From NCBI GenBank assembly GCA_964430885.1, contig CAYSHM010000032.1, positions 1-27,870 of the forward strand: a stretch of DNA of 27,870 bases. The letters run 5' to 3'. This document shows, in pieces, positions 15,285 to 27,870 of the stretch. The notes beneath the pieces are model-generated. The model was not told where the DNA came from, did no database searches, and saw nothing but the letters and a program-made list of their open reading frames with translations. This DNA is from an uncultured archaeon (GTDB lineage: Archaea > Thermoplasmatota > Penumbrarchaeia > JASLWR01). Made by a program: the position numbers and the translations under genes. The stretch's first letter is position 1; each line of letters starts with the position of its first letter.

Positions 15285-16589
15285 ATGGACCGAACCTACA
15301 GGATCCTTCAGGTGCTTGTAATATTATGTATAATATCGCTCTTACTGCTTACAGCTACACTTTTATATATTCTTTATACCAAAGAGGATGTTGAAAGGGT
15401 TCCGGGAAGATCGTGGTACACTTTGGATGATTTCTCCACTCCCATAGACTCACCCAATCTGGAGCCTGCGGTCATGGCCGGCTGCTATCTTGTGAATTGT
15501 CAGCTTTCCGACGGGAGTTTCAATTATCAATATGACCCTCTGGATAATGACTATTCCAGCAAGAACAATCTTCTCAGACAGCTTGGAACCACCTACTCGG
15601 TATTGCTGCTTTACAGACATTATCCCGAACCCATTTTTCTGGAAGCAGGGGAATTGGCAATGGAGTATATCGAGGACAATCTGGATTATATAGATGAAGA
15701 TGTGGCCCATGTCGAGCTTAACGGGGATTCAAAGTTGGGCGGGGCGGCATTGGCAGTCCTTTGTTATGTGATATATGAAAAGGTTGCGGATGAAAAATAT
15801 TCTACCTCAATGGAAGCTTTAGGTAATTTTTTTATATACATGCAGAAGGATTCAGGTGAGTTCCATAACTACTACAAGTGGGATGGGAAAGTGCTTGAGG
15901 AGGGTGACGAGAAGTATAACGAGCATACCGACTACTACCCGGGTGAGGCAATGCTTGCCCTTTCATTTCTTTACGAACATACCGGAGCGGAAAAATACAA
16001 GGACTGCTGGGATAAGGCCTTTGATTATTACTATGATTTTTACGGTGGTGCTCATTCCTATTACAGTCCATTCAGTCCCTGGGCAGTGGGTGCTGCCCAG
16101 ATAATGTATATGCTTGATCAGGACCCCCGATATGTGAACATGTCCAGAGCTATGTCGGATAGTGTTCTTTACGGCCAGGATCAATATCCGTCGGATTTCA
16201 ACGTATCAGAATATGTAGGAGGTTTCTATTACAGAAGTTATTTGAGGTACATGGCCAACCCTGACGGAGACCCCGATTATTATCCCCGGGCCAATACCGC
16301 ATCCAAGATCGAACCTCCCTGTGATTTCTACTGGCTGGTAAAGAAATATGACGCACCCGGAGATGAGTCCCTTTTGGAAGAAAGAATAATATTGGCCTCT
16401 GAATTTCTAACTAACCTTCAGTACAACAGCAGTGAATCAGAGAACATGCCAAGTCCAAAGAGAACCTATGGAGGGGTTCCGGGAGGTGTCGAGGATCCAG
16501 AGGTCCGAATTGATTATAATCAGCATGCCATTGTTGCCTGGTTAAAGGTATATGATTATGTGGAAAAAGATAGACCTCTGCTGTTCTGA
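15285..16589 (+). CDS. N-terminally anchored alpha/alpha-toroid (six-hairpin glycosidase-like) protein of unknown function
   Basis: 434 aa with an N-terminal TM. Helical hairpin repeats (NCQLSDGSF, YMQKDSGEF) and motifs NNLLRQLGT, KLGGAALA, YYPGEAMLAL, VRIDYNQH, typical of an uncharacterised toroid family. Confidence 0.65.
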   Translation: MDRTYRILQVLVILCIISLLLLTATLLYILYTKEDVERVPGRSWYTLDDFSTPIDSPNLEPAVMAGCYLVNCQLSDGSFNYQYDPLDNDYSSKNNLLRQLGTTYSVLLLYRHYPEPIFLEAGELAMEYIEDNLDYIDEDVAHVELNGDSKLGGAALAVLCYVIYEKVADEKYSTSMEALGNFFIYMQKDSGEFHNYYKWDGKVLEEGDEKYNEHTDYYPGEAMLALSFLYEHTGAEKYKDCWDKAFDYYYDFYGGAHSYYSPFSPWAVGAAQIMYMLDQDPRYVNMSRAMSDSVLYGQDQYPSDFNVSEYVGGFYYRSYLRYMANPDGDPDYYPRANTASKIEPPCDFYWLVKKYDAPGDESLLEERIILASEFLTNLQYNSSESENMPSPKRTYGGVPGGVEDPEVRIDYNQHAIVAWLKVYDYVEKDRPLLF

Positions 16590-16835
16590 TATATGAGCTA
16601 GAATTTGATTTGAAGAAGGTATTCTCAACAAGAAAATCTGATTTATTTTTAAAGCTGCAAGATGGATATTAGTATTTACGGCTAATATTTTAAGCGAGTT
16701 ATTGAGAGAATAGAATATATGAATAAATCCAAATAATTGAAATACGGTATCAGGAGAAATTGTTTTAATAAAGCATTTGAAATTTAAAATATAACACTGA
16801 TGAAAATTGATGAAAAACAAAATAGGGGTGATGAT

Positions 16836-17312
16836 GTGACGATCAAAATGGGACATGGAATGGATGAAAACAAGAAGCAGATCTATGGTGCCAATCTATT
16901 AGAGGAAAAAAAGACAGAAGATGATAAATCTGCCGAAGTGGAGGAATCGAGATATCTTTCCAAATCCGACATTCTGTTGGGGAAGGATCAGCGGGAGACA
17001 GTATTTCTCGATAAGTACGGCAAGGATGCAATTATCAGACCCCTCACAGATGGAGAACTGACGCTGGTTTTTGAACTGATAGGAAAGGTTCCCCTTAATG
17101 AGCACGGCATACCAGATCTGAACCTTGTAGATATATCTACCAATCTGAGGGCACTCAGAAAAGTGGCGTCCATGGGTCTGGTTGAACCAAAGTTAACAGA
17201 GGAAGAAATCGGTAATATGAAGTTCGGGGTTCCTGGGTTTCTGGCAAAGCGGATATTAGAGATGAGCGGTCTAACTGGTACGGCAGGTGATGACGCTAAA
17301 AACTTTCGCTAA
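16836..17312 (+). CDS. Phage tail assembly chaperone-like protein (lambda gpG / XkdN-like)
   Basis: Motifs LSKSDILLG, IIRPLTDGE, GLVEPKLTEEE, ILEMSGL and the ending AKNFR resemble tail chaperones. The start is uncertain: ATG 16800, GTG 16836 (after SD GGGGTGA at 16825-16831), ATG 16848 or ATG 16860. Confidence 0.6.
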   Translation: MTIKMGHGMDENKKQIYGANLLEEKKTEDDKSAEVEESRYLSKSDILLGKDQRETVFLDKYGKDAIIRPLTDGELTLVFELIGKVPLNEHGIPDLNLVDISTNLRALRKVASMGLVEPKLTEEEIGNMKFGVPGFLAKRILEMSGLTGTAGDDAKNFR

Positions 17313-17505
17313 GACCGAGGATGGACAAGAACTAGCAGTTCTATGCCTTGATCTTGGTTATAAACTTGCCAATAGCCCTTCGGAACTGACCCGAAATCAG
17401 ATTAATTTTCTTATGGCTTCCCTCAACCGCCGCAATAGGATCAGCAGTATCAGTTCAAAGATGTCCGAGTTTGGTTCTGGCAGTACATCGTTCATATTCG
17501 AATAG
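17287..17505 (+). CDS. gpT-like extension of the tail chaperone, probably expressed by +1 ribosomal frameshift
   Basis: Overlaps the previous stop in the +1 frame. ELAVLCLDLGYKLANSPSELTRNQINFLMA resembles T-part sequences. Junction AAC TTT CGC TAA. Weak SD for its own start. Confidence 0.55.
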   Translation: MMTLKTFAKTEDGQELAVLCLDLGYKLANSPSELTRNQINFLMASLNRRNRISSISSKMSEFGSGSTSFIFE

Positions 17506-17607
17506 GACCGAATAAAACAGCGCAGGTTATTGGAGTTACAACTTAGCATAAGGTTGATAACTTTCCTTTCGATCAAAAATTTGAATCTATCCCGAAATGG
17601 TGTGTTA

Positions 17608-25728: not shown

Positions 25729-27057
25729 TCAATGGTACATATTCAAATTATTCTTGCTCTGAGAGGATAAATCTTCACCCTTGGAAGCTTTAATCTTCTC
25801 AATTGCCTTGATGAAATGATTGACTGTTACTCTTGTTCCTTCTTTCCTCACAGTATTCATTCCGGCTTCTCGGCATATGTTCTGAATTTCGGCGCCGGAC
25901 ATTCCTTCGCATATCAGGGCGAAATTTGGGATCATCTTCTTGACCCGCCAGTCTAGGTTGAGTTTGCTGGAATGAATCTCGAGGATTTTTTCTATTCCTT
26001 CCAAATTGGGCGGAGGTATCTCAATTATCCTATCGAACCTTCCAGGTCTTAGAAGGGCTTTGTCTAGTATGTCAGGCCTATTGGTAGCAGCAATAATAGA
26101 AACATTCTCAAGGGGTCTGAAACCATCCATCTCTGCAAGCAGCTGCATCAATGTACGCTGGACCTCACGGTCGCCGGAGGTGTTCAGACCCATTCTTTTT
26201 GCACCTACTGCGTCTATTTCATCTATGAAAATTATGCTAGGGGCCTCTTCCCTTGCTAGTTGGAACAGTTCCCTGACCAATCTGCTTCCTTCTCCAATAT
26301 ATTTTTGGACGAGTTCGGAGCCTACCAATCTAATAAATGCCGCTTTGGTCTTGTTAGCCACCGCTTTCGCTAACAATGTTTTTCCATTTCCCGGAGGACC
26401 AACAAGCAGAATCCCTTTAGGCGGTTTTACACCTACTCTCTTGTAGAGTTCGGGTCGAGTCAGAGGAAGCTCCACTGTTTCCGTCATCCTCTGGATCTGT
26501 TCATCCAGTCCTCCAACATCATCATAAGTAGTGGCTGGTCTTTCCAGTATTTGGGCGCATGATACAATGGGATCTTTGGAAGAGTTCAATGGTTCCATCA
26601 CATTGAGATTCTTATAGTCAAGCATGACTCTTTTTCCCGGACTCCAATCATTATCGTAATCCCTGCTTGCCAAGTTCTTCACAACATAAATATGACCCAC
26701 ACCATTTTTCACTACGAAGCGTCCGTCGGCCAATTCCTCCATGATCTCCGCAACAACCAGGGGCGGTTCTCTGAACTCTTTCAATTTGGCAATAAGCTTG
26801 TTCACACGTTTTTTTAGTTTGTTAATATCATTATTCTTTCTCCGCAGTGTGTGCTCGAGTTCTGCTTTTTCAATCATCAATGAATAGTTTTTCTCCATAA
26901 GATCTGCATTGAGCCTGTTCAAATGGGAAAAGGTGGTATTGCTTGACCGGATTATCCTATAATCGTCTGAATCAGTTAGGTTCTTGGAGGCGTCTACGTC
27001 CGAATTGTTGTCTTTTTCCGGCTCTCTTCTTTTAGATCCATCTTCAGAATTTGACAT
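25729..27057 (-). CDS. pan: Proteasome-activating nucleotidase (AAA+ ATPase)
   Basis: Coiled coil followed by EPPLVVA OB domain, Walker A GPPGNGKT, pore loop QKYIGEG, Walker B IFIDEID, SGDREVQRTLMQLLAEMDGF, SRH ALLRPGRFDR, C-terminal HbYX motif MYH. SD GAGGAG. Confidence 0.95.
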   Translation of the reverse strand: MSNSEDGSKRREPEKDNNSDVDASKNLTDSDDYRIIRSSNTTFSHLNRLNADLMEKNYSLMIEKAELEHTLRRKNNDINKLKKRVNKLIAKLKEFREPPLVVAEIMEELADGRFVVKNGVGHIYVVKNLASRDYDNDWSPGKRVMLDYKNLNVMEPLNSSKDPIVSCAQILERPATTYDDVGGLDEQIQRMTETVELPLTRPELYKRVGVKPPKGILLVGPPGNGKTLLAKAVANKTKAAFIRLVGSELVQKYIGEGSRLVRELFQLAREEAPSIIFIDEIDAVGAKRMGLNTSGDREVQRTLMQLLAEMDGFRPLENVSIIAATNRPDILDKALLRPGRFDRIIEIPPPNLEGIEKILEIHSSKLNLDWRVKKMIPNFALICEGMSGAEIQNICREAGMNTVRKEGTRVTVNHFIKAIEKIKASKGEDLSSQSKNNLNMYH

Positions 27058-27541: not shown

Positions 27542-27817
27542 ATATTACACCTTGATGACCGGGATTAATATTCCTTTTTTTAATCAAATAACTAGGTCTC
27601 TAACGATATTTATTAATTTTCTACAAATTAATTTTCTGATAAAGAAAAGCCTCTGTAAAAACTGTAAAAAGATAGTGTTCAGAATGAAGTCTGAGCTATA
27701 CCATGATGGGAATGATAAAATATAATGTCCATTTCTCTTCTTCAAAACTCTTATTAATAACCAATAATATCCCCTATGGAAAATTTCCAGCGGGTTTAAC
27801 TTATCAGAAATAATATT

Positions 27818-27870
27818 GGCTCCTCGTAAGAATTTGTGCAAGTTCTTGATTATTTTTCAATCGATATAAC
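27818..27870 (+). mobile_element. Left end (IRL) of a probable ISL3-family insertion sequence
   Basis: GGCTCCTC-GTAAG-AATTTGTGCA...TTTCAATC is an imperfect inverted copy of positions 9-52. The 8-bp flank ATAATATT is AT-rich. No transposase is visible within the window. Confidence 0.6.

Follow-up and report, generated by a model that had tools for sequence, protein, structure and literature searches.

A tail assembly chaperone pair with a predicted +1 frameshift in a marine archaeon, probably serving a contractile tail machine with dispersed genes

Introduction

Why is a phage-type tail assembly chaperone kept on an archaeal chromosome among cellular genes, with no other tail gene beside it? 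This question is raised by a locus at 16836..17505 on the plus strand of a 27,870-nucleotide stretch of DNA (contig CAYSHM010000032.1, assembly GCA_964430885.1) from an uncultured archaeon under Thermoplasmatota (Penumbrarchaeia, JASLWR01). The whole stretch, at its full length, is referred to as the window. The source genome (G000) belongs to a marine archaeon and is a metagenome bin of 44 contigs with completeness of 91.6% and contamination of 1.4%. The locus consists of a small gene, G, and an out-of-frame extension, T. A preliminary description of the window proposed that the pair either belongs to a host-encoded tail-like machine whose genes are scattered elsewhere or has been repurposed for a cellular filament.

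In this work, the locus is interpreted as the G/GT chaperone pair of a contractile tail machine that is headless and PBSX/diffocin-like, with genes dispersed over the chromosome. The probability that we assign to this reading is about 0.72. The reading is carried by the assignment of the protein to a tail-chaperone family and by three further findings. The T-like segment downstream of G is always in another frame. Further tail parts are encoded at five other loci of the genome, in which searches with four families found no head genes. The tail genes co-occur across related genomes and are under purifying selection.

Results

Sequence family, fold, and gene position of the chaperone

ORF1 and ORF2, the two open reading frames (ORFs) of the locus, form a tail assembly chaperone of the G/GT type, as shown by the sequence family, the fold, and the gene position of the homologs. 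G (158 aa) is encoded at 16836..17312 on the plus strand, an assignment based on a GTG start, the N-termini of its homologs, the PHROG 344 family, and the fold. The T segment (65 aa, AKTEDGQELAVLCLDLGYKLA...TSFIFE) is encoded at 17308..17505 on the same strand in the +1 frame and ends at the stop codon TAG 17503-17505.

ORF1 has 199 database relatives at E <= 0.01, all of which are unnamed. PHROG 344, named 'tail assembly chaperone', is matched by 71 of the 91 family members (best E 3.4e-7), and PHROG 14268, which has the same name, is matched by 11 of them. A profile search over 1.84 billion representatives identified 163 relatives of G. Three chaperone PHROGs were matched among the 75 distant relatives that were scanned (PHROG 344 in 46, 14268 in 10, and 4976 in 7), and 'XkdN-like' and Pfam PF08890 were each matched by two. 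The G-family profile matched only noise among the PDB sequences (influenza M1, E about 1). The window G gave no tblastn match in 50,697 phage records.

The confident core of the AlphaFold model of G consists of residues 55-158. This core exhibits the chaperone fold, and its best structural matches are the HK97 chaperone and YqbN. The top match in the viral model library at E <= 1e-3 is a protein of Methanobacterium virus Drs3, and the remaining named matches at that threshold are chaperones of Arthrobacter, Halobacterium, and uncultured phages. The likeness to tail chaperones that the preliminary description proposed to check is therefore present in both family and fold. The G proteins of Thermoplasmata also have about 45 additional N-terminal residues (window 16836-16990) with a conserved Y-G-x-x-L-L-E-E. 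This stretch is modelled at low confidence and is missing from the G forms of 117-128 aa in other archaea.

A genome scan identified 71 G loci across Archaea with identity of 43-68%. The hosts include Methanocella, Methanosuratincola, Bathyarchaeia, Methanoperedens, Methanomicrobiales, Nitrososphaeria, Hadarchaeota, Thermococci, and others. A sheath gene is located within about 2 kb upstream of G in 67 of these loci, and an ORF2-like T segment directly follows G in 69. The usual gene order is sheath, a 132-aa tube-like protein, G, T, a long variable protein, two conserved proteins (c3 and c4), a Phage_base_V spike, a gp25-like sheath initiator, Baseplate_J, and a second baseplate protein. The tube-like gene precedes G in 55 of the 71 loci, and in 56 the gene after T encodes at least 400 aa. 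In about 50 archaeal clusters, the G homologs have a tube gene on one side and a tape measure gene on the other. Judging from these neighbourhoods, G therefore occupies the exact position of a tail assembly chaperone. The best solved sequence matches of the 132-aa protein are the diffocin tube and XkdM, both weak (E 0.02-0.09). A neighbour cluster of minus-strand ORFs that overlap the tube and G genes, present in 29 loci, was set aside as presumed shadow ORFs, and two truncated loci from a metagenome scan with the window protein were not used.

No further neighbour cluster occurs in more than seven loci of the archaeal set, so no head module travels with the archaeal clusters. Terminase_6N and HK97 capsid gave no match in four of the five near-complete genomes that bear a cluster. 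In the fifth, provided that the cluster contig has been assigned correctly, such matches are on contigs other than that of the cluster or some 0.75 Mb distant from it.

Two side observations concern the wider family. The Methanocella homolog has one weak match (E 0.01) among the phage records, which is ORF20 of Methanobacterium virus PhiF3 (L107 5995-6402). ORF20 is annotated as hypothetical and is located 170 nt upstream of a 1537-aa protein. It is probably the unannotated G/GT chaperone of that virus because a weak homolog stands just before this long protein, and the match is suggestive only. Two loci (L024 and L031) come from bins labelled Patescibacteria and Krumholzibacteriaceae. Their chaperone genes are nearly identical to those of Bathyarchaeia (branch lengths 0-0.03), and they are probably mis-binned archaeal contigs.

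The junction between G and T in the clade of the window

In the ORF list, ORF1 spans 16800..17312 on the plus strand, from ATG 16800 to the stop codon TAA 17310-17312. GTG 16836 is more likely to be the start of G because the N-termini of the homologs align there (V-T-I-K-M-G-H-G with M-T-I-R-M-G-E-G..) and a full Shine-Dalgarno match is located upstream of it. This match is GGGGTGAT (16825..16832, plus strand), 3 nt before the GTG, which is complementary to the 3' end of the 16S of the same genome (GGATCACCTCCT). The locus in the preliminary description likewise begins at 16836. A 4-mer Shine-Dalgarno core is found upstream of 559 of the 1076 long ORFs in the genome. ORF2 (17287..17505, plus strand) is in the +1 frame relative to ORF1. 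That frame is open from 17275, which gives an overlap of 38 nt with ORF1.

The Thermoplasmata clade on the G tree consists of eight rows, of which six are frameshifted, one is an in-frame fusion, and one is G-only. All six frameshifted members exhibit AA(A/C) TTT CG(C/T), or AAN TTT CGY, at the junction and have no long A run. In the window, the proposed +1 shift site is TTT CGC (17304..17309, plus strand), which comprises Phe UUU and a rare Arg CGC. Frame 0 is conserved as far as the Phe (A-G-D-D-A-x-K/N-F) and is followed by 1-4 unconserved codons before the stop. The +1 frame is unconserved upstream of the Phe and conserved downstream of it (F-A/V-K-T/S-E/P-x-G-x-E-L-A..). The alignment of 38 T sequences shows invariant G, L, L, Y, T, R, Q, and F. 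The two-frame arrangement is kept in five further genomes at protein identity of 58-66%, with synonymous sites saturated.

CGC is the rarest Arg codon in the genome (5.9%), CGT is the next (7.3%), and TTT is the minor Phe codon (37%). The genome has one tRNA-Arg(GCG) and one tRNA-Phe(GAA). An internal Shine-Dalgarno-like AGGTGAT (17285..17291, plus strand) is located 12 nt before the shift codon. GGTGAT is found upstream of the shift codon in five of the six frameshifted relatives at a spacing of 12 nt, or 15 nt in one. It is missing from the in-frame fused copy, and its genome-wide frequency is 0.48 per kb.

The in-frame fused homolog (P0094, L015:7689-8486) is a natural counterpart of the proposed product. 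It reads ..AGNDAIEFAKSPEGKELA.. (..A-I-E-F-A-K-S-P-E-G..) across the shift point, and the predicted junction peptide of GT in the window is ..DDAKNFAKTEDGQELAVLCLDLGYK. The fused gene belongs to a locus (L015, G005:C59, 3916-8486) that consists of a sheath (535 aa), a G-only gene (143 aa), a second sheath (463 aa), and the fused GT (265 aa). The G-only copy has a T segment in no frame. A tube-like gene is located 1.7 kb beyond this block of four genes. The locus thus exhibits a natural two-gene split of the chaperone products beside a sheath duplication. The presence of separate G-only and fused GT genes argues that the short and the long forms are both needed.

The sequence signature of a programmed frameshift is present at the locus, namely T in the +1 frame, a conserved motif, no T in frame among 68 archaeal loci, and a natural fusion. 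The GT fusion predicted from these features is 222 aa long (16836..17505, plus strand) and consists of 157 aa in frame 0 through the Phe and 65 aa in the +1 frame. GT is probably made at this locus. The pair is joined in +1, in contrast to the classical -1, and the frame had not been remarked upon in the preliminary description.

The junction had been described as intact, and this was confirmed. Its sequence is identical in Logan contigs from three DNA runs (the assembly may derive from two of them) and in a contig of 277 nt from a metatranscriptome library that covers 17276-17549. The junction is therefore no error of the assembly.

Recoding across archaeal and viral relatives

The frame of T was compared among 68 archaeal loci. 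In 47 of them T lies in the -1 frame and in the remaining 21 in the +1 frame; frame 0 was never observed. The T frame is already open before the G stop in 67 of the 68, and the exception (L088) carries a masked N run, for which reason its junction was set aside. The T homology begins near the G stop. Many loci have no start codon nearby, and two have none at all in the T frame. An out-of-frame T, an open frame, and scarce start codons together form the signature of the phage G/GT frameshift.

Most archaeal loci exhibit a run of A8-A11 at the junction in either T frame (-1 in 45 rows and +1 in 16). The -1 and +1 poly-A forms have swapped at least six times on the tree of the G protein. Transcriptional slippage on the A run could serve both frames.

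The motif of the window clade recurs in viral relatives. Forty (40) of the 75 distant relatives end in ..(S/N)-F-R followed by 0-12 residues, mostly 0-4. The viral junctions were sampled from 36 loci in IMG/VR contigs, where the T profile was detected in the +1 frame in 17, in the -1 frame in four, in frame 0 in none, and was undetected in 15. An in-frame TTT CGN, often as TCC TTT CGY, is present in the last ten codons at 15 of the 28 distinct viral junctions. Four more viral loci have TTT CGN farther upstream, at the start of the +1 homology, and three have TTT_C with a different following codon. TCC TTT CGY is located just before the G stop, with a T-like segment in +1, in seven loci (L109, L111, L113, L127, L128, L130, and L138). 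The nine bases are identical to those at the shift site of influenza PA-X.

UUU_CGN is a known +1 motif, described in the available text of PMC5052127 for PA-X of influenza A (UCC_UUU_CGU) and for plant amalgaviruses. In the mechanism proposed there, tRNA-Phe moves from UUU onto UUC during the wait for a rare Arg codon of the CGN type. For haloarchaeal tailed viruses, the part of PMC5009743 that is available reports the G-T shift as -1 in HVTV-1 and HCTV-1/2/5, and as very likely +1 in the myovirus HSTV-2. Our literature searches found no paper that links the UUU_CGN (PA-X-type) motif to tail chaperones.

The strongest alternative is that there are two genes and no frameshift, in which T would be an independent protein of 70-72 aa made from GTG 17287 or ATG 17290, for example by re-initiation after TAA 17310. 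We consider this unlikely while giving it real weight. A start codon in the +1 frame is indeed present inside the overlap in all six frameshifted clade members (ATG in five and GTG in the sixth), and some archaeal relatives have an ATG at or just before the T segment. However, the ATG in the window sits within the Shine-Dalgarno-like GGTGAT at zero spacing, and the residues before the Phe are conserved in frame 0 and not in the +1 frame. An independent gene also does not fit a T that is never in frame 0 in the 68 loci, nor the many loci without a start near the T homology, two of them without any. The natural fusion joins exactly at the Phe, and the TTT_C motif recurs in the viral relatives.

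Dispersed tail parts in the same genome

The tail parts were sought with profile hidden Markov models (HMMs) built from the archaeal clusters, with Pfam, and with PHROGs. Nine part genes were identified outside the window, all of which are intact ORFs with strong profile scores. The sheath gene (C6:21001-22428) stands alone and matches PF04984 and PF17482. The tube-like gene (C1:175850-176251, 133 aa, E 1.6e-32 to the cluster HMM) is followed by genes for a 1124-aa P/S/G-rich protein and a 426-aa conserved protein. This tube block sits between ribosomal protein genes and the gene of the archaeal NOG1 GTPase. The tape measure protein (C1:68967-72497, 1176 aa) matches PHROG 4200 at E 1.6e-29 and is next to a hub-like protein (C1:67197-68888, 563 aa). 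The gp25-like, Baseplate_J, and I-like second baseplate genes form one module (C12:63670-66845) about 140 nt from the CTP synthase gene. The last module (C18:55763-57662) consists of the spike, a 279-aa protein, and a PAAR protein.

With the window included, the parts occupy six loci on five contigs. Each of the five loci outside the window is set among unrelated and mostly housekeeping-type genes. Two modules are 108 kb apart on one contig of 251 kb (C1), and by contig coordinates every module is at least about 14 kb from any other. The genome therefore holds the sheath, tube, baseplate, spike, and tape measure genes of a contractile machine, and these genes do not form the contiguous cluster that is typical of such machines. 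The four head and packaging families searched, PF03237 (Terminase_6N), PF03354 (TerL_ATPase), PF05065 (Phage_capsid), and PF04860 (Phage_portal), gave zero matches in the 91.6%-complete genome. The scattered tail genes expected from the explanation that the preliminary description had placed first are thus found here. Its alternative of a chaperone repurposed for a cellular filament is not needed, given the tail genes in the same genome. Our literature searches found no paper on dispersed tail or contractile injection system (CIS) genes in Thermoplasmatota.

Two proteins of these modules have features of their own. The 1124-aa protein (L090 6454-9828, C1:176453-179827) contains 11% P, 11% S, and 10% G and has one weak match to a tape measure PHROG. 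It sits directly after the tube gene in the expected place of a tape measure, where the relatives have a long unalignable gene. The 279-aa protein between the spike and PAAR genes (L094 5460-6299, C18:56459-57298) has no family match and is a candidate adaptor or cargo protein. The presence of spike and PAAR genes points to a particle that would puncture and deliver something.

Distribution and selection among the relatives

Each component was searched for in 16 related genomes, which are incomplete metagenome bins. The sheath and Baseplate_J were found in the same eight relatives from five families. Among these eight, G/T is present in seven, the spike in seven, and the hub in six. Only three relatives gave a tube match. 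None of the six parts was found in the other eight relatives, so that the set is near all-or-none. The parts are again on different contigs in the relatives. In one genome, Baseplate_J and G/T are 51 kb apart on a contig of 343 kb. In four more distant families the sheath adjoins G/T with no tube gene between them, and in the family of the window the sheath and G/T are apart. G/T is present in eight of the 37 genomes of the class, including this one, and in none of the genomes of one family of 24.

Both G and T are under strong purifying selection. The pN of 0.13-0.30 compares with a pS of 0.61-0.97, which is saturated, for both segments, and dN/dS is about 0.06-0.19 in the seven of 30 pairwise comparisons with estimable dS. 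On the G tree, the clade of the window groups together with weak support and roughly follows the family groupings, and a branch with a Shimodaira-Hasegawa-like approximate likelihood ratio test (SH-aLRT) value of 94 separates it from the other 67 rows.

These data bear on two further explanations. One is that the genes are functionless, decaying leftovers of one or more myovirus proviruses that rearrangement has scattered. The patchy presence in the class described above, the failure to find the tube, hub, or G/T in some relatives, and flanks that are not syntenic would fit such debris. However, the nine part genes are intact with strong profile scores, dN/dS is low with synonymous sites saturated, and the shift motif is kept in six of six members. 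The near all-or-none presence in the 16 relatives and the family-like clade, even if weakly grouped, also speak against debris, which is therefore a very improbable explanation. The preliminary description had named a patchy and decaying distribution as a sign of a provirus remnant; the distribution found here is that of an intact, selected, and co-occurring set.

The other explanation is that G/GT serves another long protein, such as a giant surface protein nearby. It fits a lone pair with its own promoter-like region among genes of envelope and surface proteins, and the tube was not found in five relatives. Against it, bona fide tape measure and tube genes are present in the same genome, and G/T co-occurs with the sheath and baseplate and was not found in the eight genomes without them. 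The neighbours of G/T also differ in each genus, so no fixed new partner is visible. We regard a repurposed chaperone as having only a slight chance of being correct, no better than that of debris.

An artefact of binning or assembly, by which genes of different organisms or of a mis-assembled cluster would appear dispersed, is the least probable explanation of all, since the 44-contig bin with its 91.6% completeness and 1.4% contamination and the two wider-family loci in bins labelled as bacteria are outweighed by the two modules 108 kb apart on one 251-kb contig beside archaeal ribosomal protein and NOG1 genes, the Baseplate_J and G/T of a related genome on one 343-kb contig, the distance of at least about 14 kb between modules by contig coordinates, and the same junction in Logan contigs of three DNA runs.

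Surroundings of the locus

The region upstream of G/T was described as AT-rich, and the GC content is indeed 0.334 in 16501-17000, compared with 0.32-0.50 elsewhere on the window, mostly at least 0.40. An element read by eye from this AT-rich spacer, GAAATTTAAAATATAA (16779..16794, plus strand), resembles a B recognition element (BRE) with a TATA box and is the putative promoter of G/T. Elements of the GGAAAC/TTTATATA type similarly precede other tail modules. A by-eye search for a motif shared upstream of all six modules gave only generic BRE/TATA-like elements.

The near neighbours of G/T are a UbiA prenyltransferase, a 434-aa protein with GH127-like matches that are sub-threshold only, a NosD/beta-helix protein, and a 902-aa Ig-domain protein that is taken to be a membrane protein. 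Farther neighbours are giant PKD/Big proteins, AFOR, NUDIX, a C11 peptidase, and an AAA ATPase. The last (window 25729-27057, 442 aa, AAA and AAA_lid_3) is 8 kb from the chaperone and is similar to a proteasome-activating nucleotidase in size and domains. The profile HMMs gave no match to other tail genes on this contig besides G/T, and no integrase was found among the Pfam matches of 15 of the 16 window ORFs (the 85-aa ORF at 27584-27841 was left out). The cellular neighbourhood and the local absence of tube, tape measure, and integrase genes, all of which the preliminary description had noted, are in agreement with these searches.

Discussion

Proposed working of the chaperone pair

In the reading favoured here, most ribosomes would stop at TAA 17310 and produce G (158 aa). 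A minority would pause when tRNA-Phe(GAA) is paired to UUU 17304 and the rare CGC in the A site is still unread. The paused ribosomes would slip +1 to UUC and read GCU next, which would yield GT (222 aa). The ratio of G to GT would be set by a low-efficiency +1 slip at UUU_CGC. By analogy with gpG/gpGT of lambda, the tape measure protein (C1:68967-72497) would carry a coat of G and of the G portion of GT, and the T part would recruit the tube protein (C1:175850-176251). Polymerisation of the tube and sheath on the baseplate would then proceed to a set length, and the finished particle would contain no chaperone.

Several observations weigh against this reading. The first group concerns the identity of the chaperone and its product. 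The window ORF1 and ORF2 have no Pfam or PHROG match at E <= 0.01, so that their naming rests on the family and the fold, and the predicted template modelling score (pTM) of the G model is only 0.59. The window G is itself not located between tube and tape measure genes. The contig from the RNA library is a weak sign of transcription that could come from carried-over DNA, and assembled contigs such as this one cannot reveal rare slipped forms. The second group concerns the shift site. TTT-CGY codon pairs occur at 0.29 of expectation in the genome and TTT-AGG at 0.28, so that the depletion is not specific to the motif. In Escherichia coli, a Shine-Dalgarno-like sequence at a spacing of 12 nt favours -1 over +1. 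The start codons in the +1 frame of the clade, mentioned above, belong here as well.

The third group concerns the machine. The module flanks differ among the three genera of the family of the window, so the modules have moved repeatedly. The tube profile gave no match in five sheath-bearing relatives with completeness of 83-93%, a search that had no positive control and shows little. G/T, tube, and hub were not found with these queries in one genome of the same family (93% complete). Two long proteins (1176 aa and 1124 aa) are rivals for the role of the tape measure. The formation of a particle is a prediction from the gene content.

Comparison with known systems

The G-T frameshift is conserved in long-tailed phages, with gpG/gpGT of lambda as the model (Xu, Hendrix and Duda 2004, as cited in the available part of PMC5009743). 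As in lambda, the window locus consists of a small chaperone gene and an out-of-frame extension without its own start, and two products with a common N-terminus are predicted. The homologs of the window G are located just before a tape measure gene, and its fold matches the HK97 chaperone. In contrast, the predicted shift here is +1 at UUU_CGC, whereas that of lambda is -1 at a heptamer. The window gene is not beside the tube or tape measure gene and belongs to a cellular genome instead of a viral one. No sequence similarity between the window G and lambda G was detected.

XkdN and YqbN of PBSX-like elements and the diffocin proteins belong to single contiguous bacterial clusters, unlike the six loci of this archaeon, and the matches of the tube to XkdM and the diffocin tube are weak. 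The haloarchaeal tailed viruses are similar in that archaeal ribosomes are proposed to make GT by frameshifting, in one case by +1 (PMC5009743, in the part available), and the chaperone models of Halobacterium phage ChaoS9 and HHTV-2 match the model of the window G. However, their tail modules are contiguous and viral. Influenza PA-X and the amalgaviruses exhibit the same two codons and the same proposed slip of the Phe tRNA (PMC5052127, available text), but they are eukaryotic RNA viruses, whereas the motif is found here in an archaeal chromosomal gene and in prokaryotic viral contigs.

Archaeal CIS, namely the T6SS-like (type VI secretion system-like) CIS of haloarchaea (PMC11566945) and those in surveys of extracellular CIS (eCIS; PMC8213781), both in the parts available, also have sheath, tube, baseplate, and spike genes without a head in an archaeon. 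The haloarchaeal CIS is encoded in two plasmid subclusters; no tape measure homolog was found for it, and the chaperone is unmentioned in the available part of PMC11566945. The set in this work differs in that it has a tape measure and a G/GT chaperone, is dispersed, and is phage-like rather than Afp-like. The gene transfer agent (GTA) of Rhodobacter, with its multilocus 'genome' (PMC5026251, available part), is likewise a domesticated phage-derived machine encoded at several loci. Unlike the set described here, GTAs keep head genes, package DNA, and have most structural genes in one block, whereas even the sheath and the chaperone stand alone in this genome. The islands of orphan hcp and vgrG genes of bacterial T6SS provide a further precedent for a multilocus machine.

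Novelty and meaning of the findings

Earlier work has already described tail chaperones and the frameshift in them, contractile systems in Archaea, the UUU_CGN motif, and domesticated phage machines encoded at several loci, for example GTAs. Within the literature searched, three findings appear to be new. These are a contractile tail set that is split up as far as single genes and conserved in several families of archaea, a PA-X-type +1 motif in an archaeal gene and in a wide chaperone family, and the evolutionary alternation of slip-site types.

A broader proposal joins these findings and is offered tentatively, at a little under even odds. A contractile injection machine would have been taken over fully by a Thermoplasmatota lineage and inherited vertically as at least six separately promoted modules, with the chaperone and the sheath standing alone. 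The UUU_C(GN) +1 signal would be widespread, though not remarked upon until now, in a large XkdN-like chaperone family of prokaryotic viruses and archaea and would alternate in evolution with poly-A slip sites (-1 or +1).

Phage-tail-like weapons are usually recognised as contiguous clusters, and surveys of clusters would miss a scattered machine. Archaeal lineages may thus be wrongly scored as lacking tail-like machines. A gene set that is dispersed yet selected is a strong sign of domestication, and one may ask how its six loci are regulated together and how the stoichiometry of their products is balanced. To our knowledge, very few cases of +1 ribosomal frameshifting are known in Archaea, and the chaperone pair is a clean, testable case. 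The family also offers a series of variants, which consists of -1 poly-A, +1 poly-A, +1 UUU_CGY, in-frame fusion, and a G-only gene. By comparing these variants, one could study what sets the ratio of G to GT.

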